Positions 1,081 to 58,746 of a DNA stretch of 64,000 nt are shown here, one piece after another. This DNA comes from a virus (lineage: Duplodnaviria; Caudoviricetes). The notes under the pieces were generated by a model. The model was given only the letters and a program-made list of their open reading frames with translations. It searched no databases and had not been told where the DNA came from. The position numbers were made by a program, and so were the translations under genes. The stretch lies in the IMG/VR virus record IMGVR_UViG_3300044961_000667; one strand, given 5' to 3'. Every line of letters begins with the position of its first letter. Within the stretch, counting starts at the first letter, position 1.

Positions 1081-1936
1081 AAGGCGGCTCCGGCGGCTTG
1101 TAGTTCAGCACCACGATCTCCTCGACATCTCCGCGCTTCTCGTAGTGCGTGTTGATCGACCGCGGCGCCGTCACCGTCCGCACCTCGAACTTCGAGTACA
1201 GCGCCTTCACCTTCGGGTGACTGCTGTTCGACAGCATCACCTTGACGCCGCGGTCCGTCAGGCGGGAGTACGTCTCCGCCAGCTTCTTGTGGTCGAGCAG
1301 CGAGAACTCACCCGCGGTGTACGCCGTGAAGCTCGACGTCTTCGACACCGGAAGGTACGGCGGGTCCATGTAGACGAAGTCGCCTTCCTCCGCGTGCGTC
1401 AGCACCGCCTGGTAGGTCACCACGTCCAGCATCGTCCCCCGCAGAGCCTCGGAGCACGCCCGCAGGTTGTCGCGATCGCACACGGTCGGACGGTTCTTGA
1501 ACTTGCCAGGCGGGACGTTGAAGCGGCCCTTGTCGTTGACCCGGTACAGGCCGTTGTAGCCCGTCTTGTTCAGGAAGATCATCCGCGCCGCACGCTGCTC
1601 TTCGGTCAACGACCGCGGCATCTGCTCGCGCACCGAGTAGTAGTACTCGTCCCCGCCGGCAGTCCACGCCTGGTCGTGCTCGTCGAGCCGCTTCACCACG
1701 TCCTCGACCCGGTCTCGCACCATCTTGTACGACCAGATCAGCTCCTCGTTGACGTCGGAGAGCACCACCCGCTTGGCCGCCTTGAGCTTCCCGGCCGCAG
1801 CCAGCGAGTAGAACATCGCCCCTCCGCCGAGGAACGGCTCCATGTACGTGCCGAACTCGGCAGGTAGCATCCCGGCCAGGGTCTCCAACAACGCACCCTT
1901 GCCACCAACCCACTTCAGAAACGGTCTCGCGCTCAA
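1073..1936 (-). CDS. dam: DNA adenine methyltransferase (Dam family)
   Basis: PFLKWVGGK, EPFLGGG, FLNKTGYNGLYRVN, YMDPPY, MLSNS motifs. Confidence 0.95.
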   Translation of the reverse strand: MSARPFLKWVGGKGALLETLAGMLPAEFGTYMEPFLGGGAMFYSLAAAGKLKAAKRVVLSDVNEELIWSYKMVRDRVEDVVKRLDEHDQAWTAGGDEYYYSVREQMPRSLTEEQRAARMIFLNKTGYNGLYRVNDKGRFNVPPGKFKNRPTVCDRDNLRACSEALRGTMLDVVTYQAVLTHAEEGDFVYMDPPYLPVSKTSSFTAYTAGEFSLLDHKKLAETYSRLTDRGVKVMLSNSSHPKVKALYSKFEVRTVTAPRSINTHYEKRGDVEEIVVLNYKPPEPPSS

Positions 1937-2475
1937 GCTGGAATTCCTCCTTCGGCAGCTCTGTACCCCTCTCGCACCTTCGTCAAGATGTCAGGCTCCA
2001 ATCGCCACAACTTTTGGTAGCCGCGACACTTCACCGGCTCGATGGGACGCAGATCGGTCAACAGCCACCCGAACGGACCCACGAACCACTCCAGATCCAT
2101 CTCCGTCGGCTTGAAGCCCTCCAGCAGCTTCACCTCCATGACGGTCTCGTCCTCGCTGACCCAGCGCTTCGTGTTGTCCAGCATGTCGGGCGAGTCCACC
2201 TCCGTCACGCAGCCCACGAGACGGCCAACGCCGATGATCGCCGAGTCGACGTGCGTCGCGTCCCTCCGCAGGATGTCTCGATGGGGCCCATTCGCGACAA
2301 ACTGCTCCGCGTCAGGGTCCCACGCCTTCCCCGCGTGAATCGCGATGTGCTTCCCGTACATCCAGGATGGCGGCGTCCACGGCCTGTTCTCGATGCGCTT
2401 GAAACCCTGGGCCACCCAATGCGCCCAGGGCCGCCACAGCGTGAGGCCCATGATCGACGGATACAGAACGCTCAT
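1933..2475 (-). CDS. ASCH-domain protein
   Basis: LTLWRPWA..G.KRIENR.W..IAIHAG; start moved to ATG 2475 (ATGA overlap with upstream stop). Confidence 0.85.
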   Translation of the reverse strand: MSVLYPSIMGLTLWRPWAHWVAQGFKRIENRPWTPPSWMYGKHIAIHAGKAWDPDAEQFVANGPHRDILRRDATHVDSAIIGVGRLVGCVTEVDSPDMLDNTKRWVSEDETVMEVKLLEGFKPTEMDLEWFVGPFGWLLTDLRPIEPVKCRGYQKLWRLEPDILTKVREGYRAAEGGIPA

Positions 2476-3509
2476 CGCGGGAACTCCTGGATCTGAAGCT
2501 CGGCCGGCCACTCAGCCGGAACGGCACCGTGGTGCTCCTTGAAGAGCACCGAGAAGTACGTCGGCTGGTCCTTCAACGCCTTGCCGTGCATCGGGCCCAT
2601 GCGCCCGCACAGATCGGAGTCGACGTTGCTGATCGGGTTGTCGCCCATCTGCTTCACGAAGGGCGTCACCTTCGCGGCCCTGCACTGCTCGACGATGGAG
2701 CGCGCCCACGAGAGATCGAACGCTCTCGCCTTCGAGCCGCTCTCGCCACCGACGATGACCCAGTGCAGGCCCTGGCCCATCTTCACGTTCGGCACGAACT
2801 GGGCGGTCTTGTCCGCGCACGACGCGCAGAAGCTCTCGCTCTGCTTCGCCGTGGTGTTCGCCGCCTTCCAGTCGTACGCGCACTTCGAGCACTTCCACAG
2901 CTGCCCGAGCCACTTCGACAGGTCCAGCGGTCCCAGCAAGGGCTCGCACGACAGGAACCGCACCGCCGCGGGGACCGACAGCAGCAGCGGGATCCGGACG
3001 TCGGCAGCCTCCTGGTTCTCCACCGTCGTCCCGAGCCACACGTTGGGCGGCGGCGTTCCATCGACCCACGCCTGCAGCCAGTCGACGGTCTCCATCGGCA
3101 CATCAGGAGTCCTGACGAACGCGTCGATCGCAGCCGACAGGTGGCGCTTGATGTTCTGCGGCCTCTTCGTCAACAAGAGCCAGTCCAGGTTGGGCGTGCT
3201 CCTGATCAGGTGGAACAGCTCCAGCCTCCACACGTCGGAGACTTCCTCGTCGAACACGTCGGAGAGGGACGAGCAGAAGACCCTGGGCCTCGTGCCGGCG
3301 AGCTTCGCCTTGCGATCCCACGACAACGGCTTCCGCCAGTTCGACGCGACCGTCCTTCTCCGCGGCGCTCCCTTGCCCCAGTTGCCGCCGTCGAACCGCT
3401 TGTTCCGCGTCTCGGCGTAGCAGTTCGTGCACCCGGCCGAGACCTTCGTGCACCCCTCCCATCCGTTGAACGTGGCATCGCACCAACTGATCGCAGTCGT
3501 GTCACCCAT
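2472..3509 (-). CDS. Phage Gp37/Gp68 (DUF5131) radical-SAM-like protein with inserted Cys4 segment
   Basis: ISWCDATFNGWEGCTKVSAGCTNCYAE, RVFCSSLSDVF, LLLTKRP, NVWLGTTVENQ, RFLSCEPLLG, WVIVGGESG, FVKQMG. Confidence 0.92.
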   Translation of the reverse strand: MGDTTAISWCDATFNGWEGCTKVSAGCTNCYAETRNKRFDGGNWGKGAPRRRTVASNWRKPLSWDRKAKLAGTRPRVFCSSLSDVFDEEVSDVWRLELFHLIRSTPNLDWLLLTKRPQNIKRHLSAAIDAFVRTPDVPMETVDWLQAWVDGTPPPNVWLGTTVENQEAADVRIPLLLSVPAAVRFLSCEPLLGPLDLSKWLGQLWKCSKCAYDWKAANTTAKQSESFCASCADKTAQFVPNVKMGQGLHWVIVGGESGSKARAFDLSWARSIVEQCRAAKVTPFVKQMGDNPISNVDSDLCGRMGPMHGKALKDQPTYFSVLFKEHHGAVPAEWPAELQIQEFPR

Positions 3510-4893
3510 GCAGTTTCTCCATCCTGGTTTTCAAGTCCTCGTACCGCGCCATCCATCGGGCTCGCGTTTGCCGCCAGTCGGGCCACTCCGAGACATCCAG
3601 GCCGGGCACCTGCTGACCGGTGCCCTGCCACTTCTCGGGACGCTCCTCGATCGGGAACATCACCGTCGCCTCGGTGCCGAACACGTCCATGTCGGCCGTC
3701 TTCACGACGCCATTCATCGGCCATCGGAAGCGGAACTGCTGCGCCAGCGCGTTCATCAGCTTGTCTTCGAGCGGCGCGTACAGCGGCTTGAGCAACATCT
3801 TCACCGGACTCGGGATGTCCTTCAGCCCGAGCCCCTCGGAGGCGTCGTGGAAGAGGCCGTCCCACGCGCACAGAAGACGCTCCACCTCATCCTTGCCGGC
3901 GAGCTGCTCCGCCCACAGGCTGACGTTGATCGAATGCTGCGCCACTGAGTTGTGGGCCCCGAACCCATCGGCGAAATACGTCCTCGTTGACGTCTCCATT
4001 GCGACTACCGGACCTGGCGAAAGCTCCTCCGCCGCCACAACCTCTAACGTCTCGATGCTCGGAAACTCAAAGGGCGCCGACCCGGCCTTCAGCGCCGTCT
4101 GCAACTTCTGCATGAGACGCACCGGCTTGATGGTCCCAAACAGCCGAAAGACCTCACGCCACCCGCCAAGGACTCGCAGATTCATCACACCAGTCTTCTT
4201 GGACTTCGGGTCGATGCGACAAGCAAATCCGGCCTGTCGAAGAAGACCGCTGGCCGCGTCGAGAACAACACCCGGCTTCTGAGCAAATCCAGTTGTCGTG
4301 CCACGCGACCTGGACCCGGTCGTAACATGACCCTCCCCGTCAAAGATTCCAGCAAGGTATCCGGTCTCGTAGGTACGAACCGTCTTCCATGGAGTAGCAA
4401 ATCTCAGCATGTGAACCCGAAGCCCACCAAGCACAGCGTCGGCTATCTGCCTGGCCGTTCTCCACCTTTGGTTTCTCGACTGCCGCATGGCGATAAGCCA
4501 TGGGTGCTCCACCGACGTCGTAAGACTCGCTCCATCAGACAGCCACAGCCTCACCCTCGGTCGGATGATGATCTCGTGACGGAGAACGTTCGCCAAACGA
4601 AGACGACGACGCGGCTTTGGTCCTCTTCGTTTCGTCGGGAACTCATCGAAAGCAATCAGCCCAGCCCCTGTAGACAGGTCTCCAGCTGGAACCCACCCGA
4701 AATCAGAAGTCAGAACCAACGACTCCGGAGACACACAGTACGGGTACGGCGCCTGCCCTCCGTACCGGGGCTCGATCGACAACCCGTGAGCGATCTGCTC
4801 CGCAGTGAACTCCCCCGGCCTCGGGTCCGCGGGGAAGAACATCCCCGAGTTGAGCAACTGGCACCACGGACCTCTCGAACCCTGAAGCGGCAT
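3502..4893 (-). CDS. HD-domain phosphohydrolase (YfbR-like deoxynucleotidase) interrupted by an intein
   Basis: IAHGLS..RYGG..Y|intein|SVAQHS..LFHDASE; RBS AGAGGGAG. Confidence 0.88.
   Translation of the reverse strand: MPLQGSRGPWCQLLNSGMFFPADPRPGEFTAEQIAHGLSIEPRYGGQAPYPYCVSPESLVLTSDFGWVPAGDLSTGAGLIAFDEFPTKRRGPKPRRRLRLANVLRHEIIIRPRVRLWLSDGASLTTSVEHPWLIAMRQSRNQRWRTARQIADAVLGGLRVHMLRFATPWKTVRTYETGYLAGIFDGEGHVTTGSRSRGTTTGFAQKPGVVLDAASGLLRQAGFACRIDPKSKKTGVMNLRVLGGWREVFRLFGTIKPVRLMQKLQTALKAGSAPFEFPSIETLEVVAAEELSPGPVVAMETSTRTYFADGFGAHNSVAQHSINVSLWAEQLAGKDEVERLLCAWDGLFHDASEGLGLKDIPSPVKMLLKPLYAPLEDKLMNALAQQFRFRWPMNGVVKTADMDVFGTEATVMFPIEERPEKWQGTGQQVPGLDVSEWPDWRQTRARWMARYEDLKTRMEKLHG
3949..4737 (-). 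other. 263-aa intein with LAGLIDADG endonuclease
   Basis: Starts CVSPESLVLT, contains YLAGIFDGEG, ends TYFADGFGAHN followed by Ser(+1). Confidence 0.92.
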
Positions 4894-4922
4894 CAGATCT
4901 CCCTCTCAGCTATGGTCGACCC

Positions 4923-5480
4923 ATGCGAGTCGCCGTCTACGACAAGAACCCCGGTGCAGGCTTCTCTCAGCGCTTCCTGGCCTTCACCTGGCTGGTTGGC
5001 TGCTTCCTTCACAAGCTGTTCGGCAAGCTCGACGACTACAAAGCCTGCTCGTCCTGGGACGAGGCCATCGGCTGGCTGCTCTCCCGCGAGGGAACCCTCA
5101 CCTCGATCCAGTTCTGGGGGCACGGAAGCCCCGGCGCCCTCTGGAACAACGGCAAGGCCGCCTACGAGAGCACCTTCCTCAAGCTGAAGCCCAAGGTCAC
5201 CCGTGAGTCGATCATCTGGTTCCGCGCCTGCAGCGTCTTCCAGGGCCAACGAGGCTGGGACTTCTCGCGTACTCTGGCCAACGGCCTCGGCTGCACCGTC
5301 GCCGGGCACACCCGCATCATCGGCCTTCTCCAAGGCGGGCTTCACACCCGCCAGCCCAACCAGTCTCCGATCTGGCCCATCACCGAGGGCGAGCTGTCGG
5401 GTCCGCTCGCCAAGAGCGGCATGGCGTTCGGCAACAAGACGATCTTCTGCCTCCGCGCCACCGTGCCTCCCGGCTGGTAA
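4923..5480 (+). CDS. Caspase-fold (DUF4347/CHAT-like) putative Cys peptidase on the opposite strand
   Basis: IQFWGHGSPG and IWFRACSVF give a His-Gly / Cys dyad pattern; GC3-rich codons; TATGGT 6 nt before ATG. Confidence 0.6.
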   Translation: MRVAVYDKNPGAGFSQRFLAFTWLVGCFLHKLFGKLDDYKACSSWDEAIGWLLSREGTLTSIQFWGHGSPGALWNNGKAAYESTFLKLKPKVTRESIIWFRACSVFQGQRGWDFSRTLANGLGCTVAGHTRIIGLLQGGLHTRQPNQSPIWPITEGELSGPLAKSGMAFGNKTIFCLRATVPPGW

Positions 5481-7590: not shown

Positions 7591-8952
7591 TCAGTTGAGG
7601 ATGTCGGAGAGCCGGGCGGCGGGCGGCGTGGTGCCGCGCTCCACCAGCGACATCACGATCGTCGACCACATCTCCTCGATCACCTTCTGGTGCTCGATCG
7701 TGGCGTCGCCAGACTTGCTGCGCTCGTGAGCCATCTCGTGAACGAGCGTCTCCAGCGTGTCCTTCACGGTCTTCAGCATCTGACGACCGACCAGGATGTG
7801 CTCGTTCTCGCGCAGCCCGTGCAGCGACGGGTCCTTGAACTCCGCGATGCGGAACCGGCTGAGCGGCACGTCCGGCGCCCCGAGCGAGGCGAGAGCGAAC
7901 GCCTTGAGGAACACATCGCTTTCCTCGGTCGTCAGGTCGCTGACGCCGAAGGTCGCCGAGATCAGGTTCTTCGAGTCCGACTTCACCGTGTTGATGGTGC
8001 CGGTCTCCTCCTTGAGCACCTCCAACATGGCCTCAGGGACGACGATGCCGCGCTTCCCGTAGAATGCAGCCTCCTCCATCTCCTGCGGCTGACGGACCGG
8101 GATCGCGTTCTCACCGAACGTCTCCCGGAAGCGGGCGGCCATCTTCTCGCGGAGCTTGTTGCCGGTGTTCCACGTGTACCGGAGGTGCTCGACGTCGGGC
8201 TTGTTCTCGCGCATCAGGCGGTCGACCATCTCGATCAGATCCGGCCGCAAATCGACGGCCTCGTTCCAGATGGTCGCGGTCACGTTCGAGAGATCCCAGC
8301 CGTCGATGAGCCGGCGGTCGCGGTCGATCTTCGCCACGTTGGGCGGCAGGTCGTAGCCGCAGACGTAGTTGCCCACCTGCTGGACGAAGATGCCGCCCAC
8401 GTAGATGTGCCCACGCTTCGACTCGTCGAAGATCACCGCGCCCTTGCTCGTGGCCACCGTGTCAGTCGCCGCCAGCAGGAACAGCAGCTTCCGCTGCAGC
8501 GACTCCCAGTCGGCCGGCTCGACGTCAGCCACCTCGATCTCGATGGCGTTGCGCTCCTTCACGACGCCCTTCTGCACGTCGATGACGAGCACCATCTCGC
8601 CGCCGAACTTCTCCGAAGGGGCGACCTCGGGCACCCACTTGTCGGCGCCAGTGCGGATCACCGTGCGATGCCCACTGTTCACCAGCGCCAGCAACGCCAG
8701 CTTGTAGCCCTCGCCGAAGCGGCCGAGCTGGTCGGTGCGACCCCGCTTGGACGTGTACCCGACGAGCAACGTCCGCGGCTCCAGCGTGGCCCCCTTGGTC
8801 ACCAAGCGGACCATCTTGTCCTTCTCGACGTAGGTGACGGAGAACTCGTGCCCGTCCTTCTTGGCATCGAGGCCGTTCTGCATCAGCTCGCGGATCGCCT
8901 CCCAAAGGGACCAATCAACGTAGTTCTTGCCAATGGTCATTTCGATTTTCAT
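7591..8952 (-). CDS. GHKL (HATPase_c) ATPase with C-terminal HExxH motif
   Basis: Start at ATG 8952: WEAIRELMQNGLDA, LLVGYTSKRG..LGRFGEGYKLA; LVHEMAHE near the C-terminus. Confidence 0.85.
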   Translation of the reverse strand: MKIEMTIGKNYVDWSLWEAIRELMQNGLDAKKDGHEFSVTYVEKDKMVRLVTKGATLEPRTLLVGYTSKRGRTDQLGRFGEGYKLALLALVNSGHRTVIRTGADKWVPEVAPSEKFGGEMVLVIDVQKGVVKERNAIEIEVADVEPADWESLQRKLLFLLAATDTVATSKGAVIFDESKRGHIYVGGIFVQQVGNYVCGYDLPPNVAKIDRDRRLIDGWDLSNVTATIWNEAVDLRPDLIEMVDRLMRENKPDVEHLRYTWNTGNKLREKMAARFRETFGENAIPVRQPQEMEEAAFYGKRGIVVPEAMLEVLKEETGTINTVKSDSKNLISATFGVSDLTTEESDVFLKAFALASLGAPDVPLSRFRIAEFKDPSLHGLRENEHILVGRQMLKTVKDTLETLVHEMAHERSKSGDATIEHQKVIEEMWSTIVMSLVERGTTPPAARLSDILN

Positions 8953-9560
8953 CTTCGTCCTCTCTTGTTCAGCCCGCGCACGCGAGCCATCAGGTCCTTC
9001 ACTTGAAGCCGCAACAACGGAACACCATCTTCGAGACGAGTCCGACAGAACCCAAGAACGATGCTGGCAACATCTCGCTTCACCACCAACAGATTGCCTA
9101 CCGCCGACAAGAATCCACCAACCTCCTGCGCCGTGTGGAGCTGCCAAACGAAGCAGTCTCGTTGCTTCTTCTTCTTGTTGGGCCTGAACCCGATCGTCCC
9201 GACACCCACAAGGGCGACTAGCTCCTCCTGCATACATCTTGTGGCGCTCGCCACGCTGACCCTCGGATTGACCCAGCGCTCGCCGTGCTTACCCAGTCCG
9301 ACGTATCCCTCCCCGTCCACGATTCCGGCCACCCACCCGAGCTTCTCTTTCGGAAGCCCACGCAAGCGACTTTCAAGTTCGGCCCAAGCGCGCTGTCGAA
9401 CTCCGTTCCGAAGTCCTCTGACGATGAGCCAGAAAGCGCTCTCGCTGCACTTGAACCGTGAAACGATCTCGCCGTGATGGACGCCAGACTCGTAGAGCCG
9501 TCGGATTTCTGACTTCTGCTCCTCCGTCAGCCTGGTCTGGAAACCTTTGCTGTTTCCCAT
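8949..9560 (-). CDS. Free-standing LAGLIDADG homing endonuclease with N-terminal HTH
   Basis: KLGWVAGIVDGEGYV; more AT-rich codons; TAGTCT 5 nt before ATG. Confidence 0.88.
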   Translation of the reverse strand: MGNSKGFQTRLTEEQKSEIRRLYESGVHHGEIVSRFKCSESAFWLIVRGLRNGVRQRAWAELESRLRGLPKEKLGWVAGIVDGEGYVGLGKHGERWVNPRVSVASATRCMQEELVALVGVGTIGFRPNKKKKQRDCFVWQLHTAQEVGGFLSAVGNLLVVKRDVASIVLGFCRTRLEDGVPLLRLQVKDLMARVRGLNKRGRR

Positions 9561-9589
9561 GTCTCAGACTAGCACAAAAGTCAACAGAT

Positions 9590-9661
9590 TCAATTGCTTG
9601 CGCCCTCCCACAGGCCCCAGTCCACGTAGTTCTTCGCCACCGACAACTCGATCTTCGCCAT
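9590..9661 (-). pseudogene. Orphaned native 5' end of the GHKL ATPase gene (MAKIELSVAKNYVDWGLWEGASN*)
   Basis: Strong RBS GAGGAGG; peptide aligns with MKIEMTIGKNYVDWSLWEA at 8952. Confidence 0.85.
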
Positions 9662-9721
9662 CTTCGTCTCCTCCTCACATCGCGTTTCAATCGTTCACCG
9701 GCGGGAACCGCCAGCGGTACT

Positions 9722-32342: not shown

Positions 32343-32747
32343 TCAGCCCGCGACGCGAGCGATCCGCACGATGATCGACTCGGGCCACGCGCCGTACGAC
32401 TTCGGCGTCTTGGCCACCGGCTGCTCCAGGCCCTTCTGCACCATGAAGTCCGCCGCCTGCTGAACCGCGTCCGACGCCGCGGAGACGACTTCGAGGGCGT
32501 CATCCTGCCCGAGGTGCAGCGCCGACTTGGCGGCGAGATCCAGCTCCTTCAGCACCTTCATGGCCGACGCCTGGTCCCGCACCGGCAGCGCCGACTTCAC
32601 CTTCCGCGCGTCCACGGTGAGGCCGCCGTCCAGGAGAGCTTCGACGGCCTGGAGCGCCATCTTCTGCGCGTTCGCGTACGGGCCGGTCGCTTCCTTCAGC
32701 TCCGACTTCACGGACTCCAGCAGCGAGTTGATGCGCTTCAGGTTCAT
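32343..32747 (-). CDS. Hypothetical protein
   Basis: GC3-rich ORF. Confidence 0.7.
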   Translation of the reverse strand: MNLKRINSLLESVKSELKEATGPYANAQKMALQAVEALLDGGLTVDARKVKSALPVRDQASAMKVLKELDLAAKSALHLGQDDALEVVSAASDAVQQAADFMVQKGLEQPVAKTPKSYGAWPESIIVRIARVAG

Positions 32748-56447: not shown

Positions 56448-56907
56448 AAGACGGCGTCAGCCTGCCGTTTTCGAGACGGAACACGTTCCATGGAGCCCTG
56501 TACCCGCTCTTCAGCTCCACGGCCCCGTTGATGTGCAGCTTCATCGTCGTCTTGCTGGGCAGCCTGTACTTCGGATCGAAGCCCGCCTTCTTCGCCGCTT
56601 CCGCCAGCGGACGGTTCGGGTCGTAGTCCACGTCCAGCATGACCCTCAGCGCCTCGGTGTGCGGCGAGTTCGCGATGCGCTCGAACTCCGCGGCAATCTG
56701 CTCCGCCAATGCAGTCTCGAACGCGACGATCTTCTCCTCGGGGATCGGCGCCCACATCGAGGTGAACGCATTCAGCATCGCCTCCCCGATCACCGAGTCG
56801 GCCGACTCAGTCGTCCTGGTGGGCCCCAGCACATCGTGCCGCGGCTTCTGCCGCAAGGTGTCGCCCCACCACTTCGCCACGACATCAAACAGCTCCTTCG
56901 TCACCAT
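56440..56907 (-). CDS. Hypothetical protein
   Basis: AKWW..L.VDYDP...L..AA motif. Confidence 0.75.
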   Translation of the reverse strand: MVTKELFDVVAKWWGDTLRQKPRHDVLGPTRTTESADSVIGEAMLNAFTSMWAPIPEEKIVAFETALAEQIAAEFERIANSPHTEALRVMLDVDYDPNRPLAEAAKKAGFDPKYRLPSKTTMKLHINGAVELKSGYRAPWNVFRLENGRLTPSSS

Positions 56908-57295
56908 GCTGCATCCCTTTCTCAAGCCTCTCTCCGAGGCGTTTCTCTTCGTCGGTGAGGTACAGCCTGGGCCTCGCCTCGTGCTCGTGTGTCAGCTTCC
57001 CGAGGTACACCCAGCGCTTCCATGGGGCGGCCACCAACCCGTGCACGCTGCAGCAATCCTTCTCGTCGAGGCTTCGGGAGCACCGGCGATTGGGCCCAAC
57101 GCCGTCGTCGCTGATCAACGGGCAGGAGCGATTCTTCCGACGTTCCCTGGCTTCTTTCACTGATGGGTGGATGCCGGCGGCAACGAGGCAGGCCGTCGTG
57201 TCCGAGCAGACCTGCATCTGAACTTCGCCGTCCGAGACAGTCTTCCCGCCGCCCCAGAGAACAGAGCCACAAAGCGGACACTTCTGAGCCATCAC
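56885..57295 (-). CDS. Cys-rich hypothetical protein with recoded 5' end
   Basis: MAQKCPLCGS..; coupled to the HNH-AP2 stop. Confidence 0.7.
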   Translation of the reverse strand: MMAQKCPLCGSVLWGGGKTVSDGEVQMQVCSDTTACLVAAGIHPSVKEARERRKNRSCPLISDDGVGPNRRCSRSLDEKDCCSVHGLVAAPWKRWVYLGKLTHEHEARPRLYLTDEEKRLGERLEKGMQHGDEGAV

Positions 57296-57774
57296 TCTCT
57301 CGGAAAATTGAGCTTCGCGAAGTCGCCGAACGCCACGACGGCAGCTTCGTCGTACGCCCTGGCCGCGTCTTCGGGCGTTTCGTAGTACCCCAAGAACTTC
57401 GTCCGGCCGTCAATCTTGATTCTGGCCTGCCACGGCTTGTTCTTGCGACGATCGTTCTGCTTGAAGTCAACGCCCTTGAAAGAGCGTTTCGTCCCCACGT
57501 TTCTGCTGTTCTGCTGGTGCGTCGCCGGCCTCAGGTTCTCGCGCCTGCAGTCAAGCGTATCGCCATTCTTGTGATCGACCTCCAGCCCGACACCAACACC
57601 GAGAACCTCGCGATGCAGATAGATGGCCTTCTTCTTTGGACCATGGTGCTCATCTCGACGCGCGTAGAACAATCCATCCGAGCGCGGATTCGCGTACCAC
57701 CAAAACCCAGCCAGACGACCGTCGACGTCGTCAACCAGGGCCTTCAGTCCACGCGTCAGAGGAATTTCCACCAT
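57292..57774 (-). CDS. HNH-AP2 homing endonuclease
   Basis: IPLTRG..LHREVL..VDHKNGDTLDCRRENLR..N; AP2: FKGV..WQARI..LGYY.TPE.AARAYD.AA. Confidence 0.93.
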   Translation of the reverse strand: MVEIPLTRGLKALVDDVDGRLAGFWWYANPRSDGLFYARRDEHHGPKKKAIYLHREVLGVGVGLEVDHKNGDTLDCRRENLRPATHQQNSRNVGTKRSFKGVDFKQNDRRKNKPWQARIKIDGRTKFLGYYETPEDAARAYDEAAVVAFGDFAKLNFPRE

Positions 57775-57798
57775 GCGAACATCATACCTCTTGGCGAA

Positions 57799-57843
57799 CT
57801 AAACGAACAGTGGGCTGCCGCAGAGGGGACACAGCTTGCTCAT
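57799..57843 (-). pseudogene. Orphaned native 5' end (MSKLCPLCGSPLFV*) of the gene at 56885-57295
   Basis: Aligns with MAQKCPLCGSVL. Confidence 0.75.
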
Positions 57844-57847
57844 GGCT

Positions 57848-58108
57848 CTACCAGTCGTCGGGGATGTCGGTGGCGCGGATGTCGAACTTCCCACCCGATT
57901 CCTGCTTCAGCTTCCCCTCAGGCACCGTCTGGAGGAAGCACTCCGTGCACTTCACGTACTTCGGAGGCTGAGCGGAGCCGCTGACCCGATCCATCCGGTG
58001 GCCGCACTCCATCTGAAGCCGCCACACCGAAGCACCGGCGCCCTGCACCCGTTCCGCTTCCGTCACCTTGCGCTGGAAGAGGCCGTCGTTCGCCATGAGG
58101 TACACCAA
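57848..58108 (-). CDS. Hypothetical protein
   Basis: ECGH..CTEC. Confidence 0.65.
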   Translation of the reverse strand: MVYLMANDGLFQRKVTEAERVQGAGASVWRLQMECGHRMDRVSGSAQPPKYVKCTECFLQTVPEGKLKQESGGKFDIRATDIPDDW

Positions 58109-58297
58109 CTACCCATGGCAGCCGCTGTCAATCCTGCCCGCGCTCGCGAATCCTCTTCGCCTTCCTGGCCAGGGTGTCAGCGATCCTTCGGATCTGCGTG
58201 GCGACGCCGGGGGCCGCACGTGCCCACTGCCTCGCCAACCAGTGCAACGTGATGACGGAGACGTCCAGCGCTGTCAGGTACTCGTCCTTGAGCCGAT

Positions 58298-58510
58298 TCA
58301 CTCGGGCAAAGTACCTGCGGTCGGCGCCTCCCGTCCAAAGCCGAGAGCGCTCATGGCAGCGCGGGCGGCAGCGCGCCACTTCGCCTGCACCTGCTCACCG
58401 AGAGCCGGCCACCGGGGCACATCACGGCCGTCGAACGTCTTCCAGGGATTGGGCGACTCCTCGTTGTACGCGTTGAACATCTTCTCGGCCAACTCGATCT
58501 CTCGGCTCAT
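58298..58510 (-). CDS. Hypothetical protein
   Basis: RBS AGGAG. Confidence 0.7.
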   Translation of the reverse strand: MSREIELAEKMFNAYNEESPNPWKTFDGRDVPRWPALGEQVQAKWRAAARAAMSALGFGREAPTAGTLPE

Positions 58511-58533: not shown

Positions 58534-58746
58534 TCACTGCCGCGGGCGACGATGCCCCTCTGGCACCTTCGTCTTCTTCTTGTGGGTGGGAGCCTTGCGT
58601 CGCGCCGCGTTGCGGGCGTTCGCCTTCTTCACCACCAGCTTGGCCTTCGCCATCACGTCGAGGTACCCGCTGACGTACAGGGCGCCCGGAGGCATGGTTC
58701 CGCTGCCGATCACCTGCAGCACGTGCCTCGCGTACGAGATCTTCAC
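58534..58746 (-). CDS. Small basic hypothetical protein
   Basis: Coupled ORF, Lys/Arg-rich tail. Confidence 0.6.
   Translation of the reverse strand: MKISYARHVLQVIGSGTMPPGALYVSGYLDVMAKAKLVVKKANARNAARRKAPTHKKKTKVPEGHRRPRQ

Follow-up and report, generated by a model that had tools for sequence, protein, structure and literature searches.

An HNH-AP2 endonuclease cassette that very probably entered a phage gene and replaced its start codon and first twelve codons

Homing endonucleases are thought to spare their hosts in three ways, by residing in self-splicing introns, in inteins or at intergenic sites. A different arrangement is found in the mobile open reading frames (mORFs), which create gene hybrids in atp6 of Allomyces macrogynus and in atp6, atp9, cox2 and nad3 of Glomus sp. 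(PMC3630166, which cites Paquin et al., 1994 for these elements), and in the WHO elements, which home into FBA1 of Torulaspora and Lachancea yeasts (Coughlan et al., 2020, PMC7282813). The present work concerns a 64,000-nucleotide stretch of a virus of the Caudoviricetes (IMG/VR record IMGVR_UViG_3300044961_000667; the whole stretch is called the window). It contains, inside a gene here named X, what is very probably a mobile homing-endonuclease cassette in a protein-coding gene, with neither an intron nor an intein. As in this cassette, the endonuclease open reading frame (ORF) of mORFs lies in a coding gene without an intron, a diverged foreign gene end completes the reading frame, and the native end is left behind as an unused fragment (PMC3630166); the two copies of Glomus atp6 are 63.5% identical in DNA and 91% in protein (PMC3630166). 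The WHO elements are likewise neither intron nor intein, and their integration swaps one end of the host gene for a resistant copy that they carry (PMC7282813). Their cleavage is allele-specific, as shown experimentally, and is repaired by gene conversion (PMC7282813).

In phages, the T4-type seg and mob genes also resemble the cassette, in that they encode intron-free nucleases, spread during co-infection and co-convert their flanks (PMC2988022). Promoters embedded in segG, segA, segE, mobB and mobC serve the downstream gene (PMC2988022). The enzyme family is also a described one. HNH-AP2 proteins occur in phages, cyanobacteria and protists (Magnani et al., 2004, as cited in PMC10448857 and PMC2248197), with examples in gp59 and gp209 of ICP1 and in the Xanthomonas phages Xp10, OP1 and Xop411 (PMC10448857, PMC2248197). 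They share the build of the cassette enzyme, an N-terminal HNH/HNN nuclease and a C-terminal AP2 domain, and are free-standing and scattered in phage genomes.

The layout of the locus is given below. Window coordinates are used throughout, and all genes of the cassette region are on the minus strand. The comparisons are with five metagenome contigs, L001-L005, that carry gene X without the element.

57848..58096, minus strand: gene U, 82 residues; ORF from ATG at 58096 to the stop TAG at 57850-57848; left homology flank
57799..57843, minus strand: stub of 14 codons, MSKLCPLCGSPLFV followed by a stop; ATG at 57843, TAG at 57801-57799
57775..57798, minus strand: spacer of 24 nt, with a Shine-Dalgarno-like (SD-like) AAGAGG at 57792-57787 and a -10-like TATGAT at 57786-57781
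57292..57774, minus strand: HNH_3-AP2 homing endonuclease gene, 160 residues; TGA stop at 57294-57292
57257..57292, minus strand: codons 1-12 of X in the replacement version, MAQKCPLCGSVL, with an ATG that shares a base with the nuclease TGA
57257..57811, minus strand: DNA differing from the element-free allele around the insertion, from BLAST and alignment against L001-L005
57028..57256, minus strand: co-conversion tract, codons 13-88 of X, of donor type; 49 differences from L001 over 228 nt
56885..57292, minus strand: gene X, 135 residues, starting MAQKCPLCGSVLWGGGK; the host gene of the cassette

The stub consists of the native first 12 codons of X, followed by codons for FV and a TAG stop. 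Only 4 nt separate the stop of gene U from the ATG of the stub, and the native start context of X is retained. Stub and nuclease share one frame, in which the TAG is followed by eight codons and then the ATG, and the nuclease gene runs into X by way of a TGATG overlap, in which base 57292 is common to the nuclease TGA and the ATG of X. An earlier note, drawn from the letters of the window alone, had described the stub, the TATGAT hexamer, the nuclease, the overlap and the unusual codons, and each of these is present in the sequence on the minus strand. The note had also proposed that the cassette replaces the 5′ end of the gene it invades, and had named as refuting evidence the finding of endonuclease-free relatives that begin with the MAQK version.

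Endonuclease-free relatives exist, but they begin with the stub version. A protein search with X returned one cluster, 91% identical, with the start MSKLCPLCGSPLWGGGK. It is encoded on the contigs L001-L005, the longest of which is 123.8 kb. In all five, X follows directly after U at the same 4-nt gap, there is no nuclease gene, and X begins with the stub version (MSKLCPLCGSPL-WGGGK). The 489 nt of left flank that lead up to and include nt 32 of the stub match L001 with 0 mismatches, and nt 1-32 of the stub are identical to the element-free alleles. The insertion point is thus at nt 32-36 of X, that is, 12 codons into the gene. The differing DNA extends from the tail of the stub through the spacer and the nuclease gene to the end of the 12 replacement codons, with a net insertion of 551 nt. 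The possibility raised in the note that the CPLCGS match is a chance similarity can be set aside, given the identity of 32 nt of the stub and the 489 nt before it to the native allele. The match of the stub to the N-terminus of X scores 52 (ungapped BLOSUM62), and 600 mismatched pairs of loci have a 99th percentile of 42 and a maximum of 49; chance is in any case irrelevant, because the element-free relatives exist.

The association between allele and nuclease is complete among the contigs found. By exact-sequence look-ups, a MAQK start of X stands directly behind a nuclease gene in 7/7 contigs and an MSKL start is found without a nuclease in 5/5, counts that are indicative only, as contigs of different samples may copy few phage genomes and are not independent. 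The element is at the same nucleotide in the window, in L006-L008 and in L091-L093, and is missing from L001-L005. Two JGI samples, 3300028845 and 3300024274, each hold both alleles, the element-free one in L004/L005 and the element-bearing one in L006/L007. DNA related to the locus was found in metagenomes from hot springs and microbial mats, bioreactors, wastewater, sludge and soil.

To the right of the nuclease gene the comparison with L001 has a very different appearance. Over X nt 4-36, 16/33 nucleotides and 4/11 amino acids of the replacement codons differ from the stub and native version, and over the 12 codons stub and replacement are about 56% identical in DNA and about 67% in protein. 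The difference from L001 is about 44% over 36 nt and then about 22% up to nt 265 of X, with 21 and then 24 mismatches in the first two successive 100-nt bins beyond the replacement codons. At about X nt 265 (about 57028) the divergence drops abruptly to zero, and it remains nearly zero over 2.9 kb beyond X. For codons 13-88 the proportion of synonymous differences (pS) is 0.56, which is saturated, and that of non-synonymous differences (pN) is 0.107, while codons 89-135 show no difference at all. On this comparison, the window lineage is an L001-type backbone carrying the cassette together with the first 265 nt of X from an anciently diverged donor. Because the diverged tract runs to nt 265, the 'recoded' DNA is not confined to 12 codons. 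A further difference between the two genomes lies near the cassette: L001 carries at 1375-5283 about 3.9 kb, with seven to eight small genes, one of them DUF7715, that the window does not have at 58540-58560. This is ordinary mosaicism.

There is also a second cassette lineage. The contigs L006-L008 encode a nuclease (P0003) that is 88% identical in amino acids to that of the window, in an equal layout, with the stub MSKLCPLCGSPLCV and its stop, the same spacer, the TGATG overlap and a MAQK start, MAQKCPLCGSVL. The spacer hexamer in L006 is TATGGT, where the window has TATGAT. All 36 nt of the stub are equal between the window and L006, and over 254 nt of left flank plus the 36-nt stub there is 1 mismatch, as against 85 mismatches over the next 516 nt (stub tail, spacer and nuclease; Fisher p 8e-15). 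Two long-separated cassettes with the same boundary in a near-identical left backbone point to horizontal movement, not vertical descent. The exact exchange point can be narrowed further. Codons 11-12 of the stub are CCA CTG in both element lineages and CCC TTG in the element-free alleles; the cassette therefore brings the final 4 nt of the stub with it, and exchange took place at nt 33 or earlier. A candidate microhomology at the junction, CTGTTC, is present in both copies in the window, but was dropped because it is not conserved in L006.

The neighbourhood of the second lineage differs slightly from that of the window. Genes downstream of X in L006 are about 95% identical to those of the window, and those upstream about 99%. 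At L006:1155-1250 the 155-residue (phrog_8937) and 106-residue genes that follow X in the window (56907-56376) and in L001 are absent.

The substitutions between the two lineages are informative about function. Among the 12 replacement codons there are 5 synonymous and 0 non-synonymous changes between the window and L006, from which it follows that the replacement codons are translated. For the nuclease gene pS is 0.51 and pN 0.068. Judged from these substitution patterns, both the nuclease and the replacement N-terminus are kept by purifying selection.

The nuclease itself matches Pfam HNH_3 (PF13392) with 38.8 bits against a cut-off of 24.8, and phrog_99 with an E value of 2e-34. The Pfam AP2 match is below its cut-off (19.4 vs 33.3). 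AP2 (PF00847) is present in most of the relatives of the nuclease, and plant AP2/ERF structures in the PDB match residues 110-160 with E values from 1e-8 to 2e-4. The HNH/HNN motif is intact, with D67, H68, N80 and N92 invariant in an alignment of 27 relatives. The closest relative outside the two lineages is only 55% identical, and a structure search of the PDB found no solved or characterised close relative.

Less can be said of the two neighbouring genes. Gene U is also called in L001-L003, and gene X is a Cys-rich ORFan with a CxxC at residues 5-8; neither matched a Pfam or PHROG family. An exhaustive HMMER search for distant homologues of X, over 1.84 billion representatives, returned only its own cluster, and an exact-pattern scan of IMG/VR for the replacement start found nothing. 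Phage reference genomes gave no match, either in a distant DNA search with 2 kb or by tblastn of X, and the window is therefore not close to any deposited phage.

From the observed anatomy, the presence and absence alleles, the two diverged lineages, the sharp left boundary, the co-conversion tract and the purifying selection, we infer a route of cleavage, repair, immunity and expression as follows. The cassette consists of the HNH_3-AP2 nuclease gene together with a foreign start codon and the first 12 codons of X. The native 12 codons are severed from the body of X and come to a stop two codons later, forming the stub, and X is rebuilt from the start of the cassette, which supplies the start and the first CxxC knuckle and so would preserve the function of X. 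Movement would begin when the nuclease cuts or nicks an element-free X near codons 11-13. The break would then be repaired from an element-bearing genome in a co-infection: the left 3′ end would pair with the stub and U and prime copying across the cassette into X, and the new strand would anneal downstream, wherever donor and recipient are similar enough, to give a one-sided tract, here of 265 nt. This route is modelled on double-strand-break repair and synthesis-dependent strand annealing (PMC2988022). With repair primed from the left 3′ end, the left side would show no conversion and the right side a long tract, which agrees with what is seen. Element-bearing alleles would escape cutting, since their site is split and the copy at the right half-site is strongly diverged.

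The spacer holds two signals that could serve expression of the nuclease. The hexamer TATGAT ends 6 nt before the nuclease ATG, at the position given in the earlier note, which read it as the promoter of a leaderless mRNA. In favour of that reading, the TANNNT form is preserved in L006 (TATGGT). A hexamer of the form TANNNT stands 5-7 nt before the start of only four ORFs of at least 60 residues in the window, two of which are the endonuclease genes. The other two are at 32747 (minus strand) and 4923 (plus strand); one has 134 residues and no family, and the other has 185 residues, a weak match to DUF4347 and an orientation opposite to most genes. A scan with a two-hexamer sigma-70 pattern found no site at the nuclease spacer. 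In L001, an SD sequence precedes 23/29 genes and a near-start hexamer 0/29. We consider that the nuclease is probably translated at a low level, either with the SD-like AAGAGG as ribosome binding site or by ribosomes that have just terminated on the stub. Such ribosomes could reinitiate, because the native start context is kept and the nuclease ATG follows the stop in frame, 24 nt further on. A leaderless transcript from TATGAT is less likely than this, with a chance of roughly one in three. X is probably translated by coupling to the nuclease ORF, as suggested by the overlap of its start with the nuclease stop.

The leader was also folded. In both lineages (57745-57800, minus strand, in the window; L006:260-317) the predicted fold pairs AGAGG of the SD-like sequence with CCUCU in codons 5-7 of the nuclease, and this pairing recalls the sequestration of ribosome binding sites known for T4 endonucleases. 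The stub-to-nuclease leader fold is no stabler than those of shuffled sequences (z 0.3-0.6).

The layout is not limited to this enzyme and this target. The earlier note had reported the same architecture at 8890-9680 with an unrelated nuclease family, and this case 1 is borne out:

9560-8949 (locus 8949-9661), minus strand: case 1, a LAGLIDADG-type ORF with the same layout as the HNH-AP2 cassette

Here a 23-codon stub, MAKIELSVAKNYVDWGLWEGASN followed by a stop, with its ATG at 9661, lies upstream of the LAGLIDADG ORF, TAGTCT stands 5 nt before the ATG, and an ATGA stop-start overlap leads into a gene of 453 residues (phrog_6077) that starts MKIEMTIGKNYVDWSLWEA. Homologues of the 453-residue gene typically start MAKIELT...YVDWGL, which is stub-like. 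A scan of the whole window for stubs resembling a downstream N-terminus found only case 1 and the HNH-AP2 cassette (case 2), the remaining matches being of low complexity and off-frame. A survey was also made of 80 HNH-AP2 loci in IMG/VR, each upstream peptide being scored against the downstream N-terminus and compared with the mismatched pairs described above. Two of the 80 show the layout. Locus L065 (2331-3385) scores 69 and has a 50-codon stub, with an AT-rich replacement copy against a GC-rich stub. Locus L043 (2430-4679) scores 64; its stub has 24 codons, stop and start codons overlap on either side, and its target gene is a probable portal protein, and a tblastn search of it against phages gave no match. 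Case 1 and these two loci show that the strategy recurs with different enzymes, targets and stub lengths, which supports the suggestion of the note that it is a general one.

A bolder generalisation can be offered only tentatively, namely that start-replacing cassettes are a general and undescribed niche for several endonuclease families in genes of phages and other prokaryotic genomes. In it the carried 5′ end would be under selection for resistance to cutting and for too much divergence to recombine with the stub, the stub would preserve the translation start of the target gene as an upstream ORF passing ribosomes to the nuclease, the nuclease ORF would pass them on to the rebuilt gene, and host signals would be borrowed throughout.

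Two other arrangements were noted in the course of these searches. In L068 (2440-2990) and in the same region of L069, a 21-nt direct repeat, TTCTCCGGCGACAGTATACCG, flanks an HNH-AP2 gene; the repeat appears to be non-coding and is perhaps a target that was duplicated, or else a regulatory site. In the window itself, an ORF of 463 residues at 3502-4893 (minus strand) contains the motifs CVSPESL...YLAGIFDGEGH...FGAHNS, and has Pfam LAGLIDADG_3 and HD matches just below the cut-offs. From its sequence it looks like an HD-domain nucleotidase split by a LAGLIDADG intein, and would then be the third homing-type element in the window.

Other explanations of the locus have to be set against these data. 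The two copies of the 12 codons are on the same strand and 551 nt apart, as would be expected from a tandem duplication of the 5′ end of X whose copies diverged in place, with the nuclease independent or a bystander. We regard this as highly improbable. It is the non-functional copy that matches the relatives, and the functional copy that departs from them, by 44%; with flanks 100% identical to L001, there was no time for divergence in place; the divergence extends 265 nt into the single-copy part of X and then ends abruptly; and the nuclease and the MAQK start always occur together. Group I introns often house phage homing endonucleases, and the continuity of the stub frame with the nuclease frame in both lineages (TAG, eight codons, ATG) would also suit a self-splicing intron or intein, with the stub as a first exon that is joined to the body of X. 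Against this, a TAG closes the stub, and the protein contains only HNH_3 and AP2 domains and lacks a Hint domain. The non-ORF part of the 551-nt insertion is only about 72 nt, which leaves no room for a ribozyme, and a search of Rfam with both strands of 56500-58300 gave no match at E <= 1. Moreover, X has its own start and an N-terminus under purifying selection. Contigs from RNA libraries (runs X14 and X17; window 56700-58150) carry only the element-free form, with native downstream sequence, which makes it the other allele and not a spliced product; these contigs are uninformative on element-bearing transcripts. Splicing is thus a very unlikely explanation.

The most serious alternative accepts the cassette as real and questions only the meaning of its parts. 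It holds that the stub and the 'recoded' start are non-adaptive, that the replacement codons are merely the diverged allele of the donor, and that the hexamer is due to chance. A free-standing nuclease upstream of X in a diverged phage would have been fused behind codon 12 by one illegitimate repair. For this speaks the saturation of synonymous divergence throughout the tract (pS 0.56 in codons 13-88 vs 0.57-0.84 in codons 2-12), together with the absence of a promoter by the sigma-70 scan, the predominance of SD sequences and lack of near-start hexamers in the genes of L001, and the presence of an SD-like AAGAGG before the nuclease itself. Against it, the replacement codons are distinct from the tract that follows them. 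After the ATG, 6/11 of them end in A or T, and their GC content at third codon positions (GC3) is 0.45 in the window and 0.55 in L006, below the rest of the tract (0.80-0.84) and the nuclease gene (0.72-0.77), and also below the stub (0.82), the native allele (0.91), the neighbouring genes (0.81-0.93) and the genome (about 0.85). The probability of 5 or fewer of 11 is 0.003 at the genome level of 0.85, and 0.06 at the level of the nuclease gene. Their pN from the stub is 0.365, vs 0.107 in the tract, and amino acids differ from the native version at 4/11 replacement codons vs 8/76 in the tract (p 0.04). The same layout has also arisen with other enzymes and other targets, and a TANNNT hexamer precedes the ATG of each of the two endonuclease genes by 5-6 nt, against only two further ORFs with such a hexamer in the 64 kb. 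On balance we consider this alternative unlikely.

Several points nevertheless weigh against the reading of the locus as an actively homing cassette with a purposely altered start. Because synonymous sites have reached saturation all along the 265 nt, the difference of the 12 codons may have come about without selection for it; the extra signals of recoding, in GC3 and amino acid differences, are modest, and donor ancestry alone would account for most of the difference in the replacement codons. Selection for divergence, either against cutting or against recombination with the stub, is plausible but unproven. The claim of the earlier note that the N-terminus is recoded therefore stands as far as the codons are diverged and low in GC3, and has to be qualified in that part of the difference is donor divergence, which reaches about 230 nt further. 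As X has no homologue outside its own cluster, there is no candidate donor for the MAQK version. The allele counts carry the dependence between contigs mentioned above, and cleavage, homing and transcription of this element are what we infer from sequence comparison. The SD-like AAGAGG, 12 nt upstream of the nuclease ATG and so rather far from it, provides a rival to the leaderless signal. The RNA-library contigs, which are short and in one of the two libraries come from a wastewater metatranscriptome, carry the element-free allele only; the native U-X locus may be transcribed in nature, DNA carry-over being an alternative.

With these reservations, the cassette reading has comparative support that is unusually clean, with both alleles in the same samples, two old lineages in a near-identical backbone, a left boundary sharp to the nucleotide and a mapped right tract. 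The locus would then document a fourth way for a homing endonuclease to spare its host, for phage gene starts, which is to enter the coding sequence and bring a substitute start. This has consequences for the annotation of phage genomes. A short orphan ORF that precedes an endonuclease gene in a phage may be the stub of the gene after it, a gene start that adjoins an endonuclease may be foreign, and such cassettes would mark local recombination boundaries. The stub would also directly predict the target site of the nuclease, which may be useful in the mining of sequence-specific nucleases.

The comparison with described systems can now be completed. In open-access full texts we found no phage report of a replaced gene start, which is weak evidence of absence. 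A term search of the T4 review located no description of a duplicated, replaced coding start (PMC2988022), and the papers on the ICP1 and Xanthomonas HNH-AP2 proteins mention neither conserved flanking sequence nor a duplicated target-gene start (PMC10448857, PMC2248197). The seg and mob genes differ from the cassette in their intergenic position or, as with mobE in Aeh1 nrdA, in dividing a gene into two parts that both work (PMC2988022). The cassette behaves as homing elements in general do, being present or absent at one precise site with co-conversion of the flank, and has the attributes neither of group I or II intron-encoded endonucleases nor of inteins. With the gene-end-replacing elements it has in common the lack of an intron or intein, the diverged copy that completes the gene and the native fragment left behind, but not the replacement of the 3′ end. 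In mORFs it is the 3′ end, encoding the C-terminus, that is replaced, the endonuclease is often in frame with the host gene and of LAGLIDADG or GIY-YIG type, and the setting is an organelle. In the cassette it is the 5′ end and the start codon that are replaced, the enzyme is HNH-AP2, the setting is a phage genome, and translation restarts at a stop-start overlap. The WHO elements differ in their nuclear locus, in replacing the 3′ end, in their intein-derived LAGLIDADG/zinc-finger proteins and in forming arrays by repeated homing, and their cleavage is experimentally established where that of the cassette is predicted. The cassette thus works like the mORF and WHO elements, but is a variant and a member of neither family.

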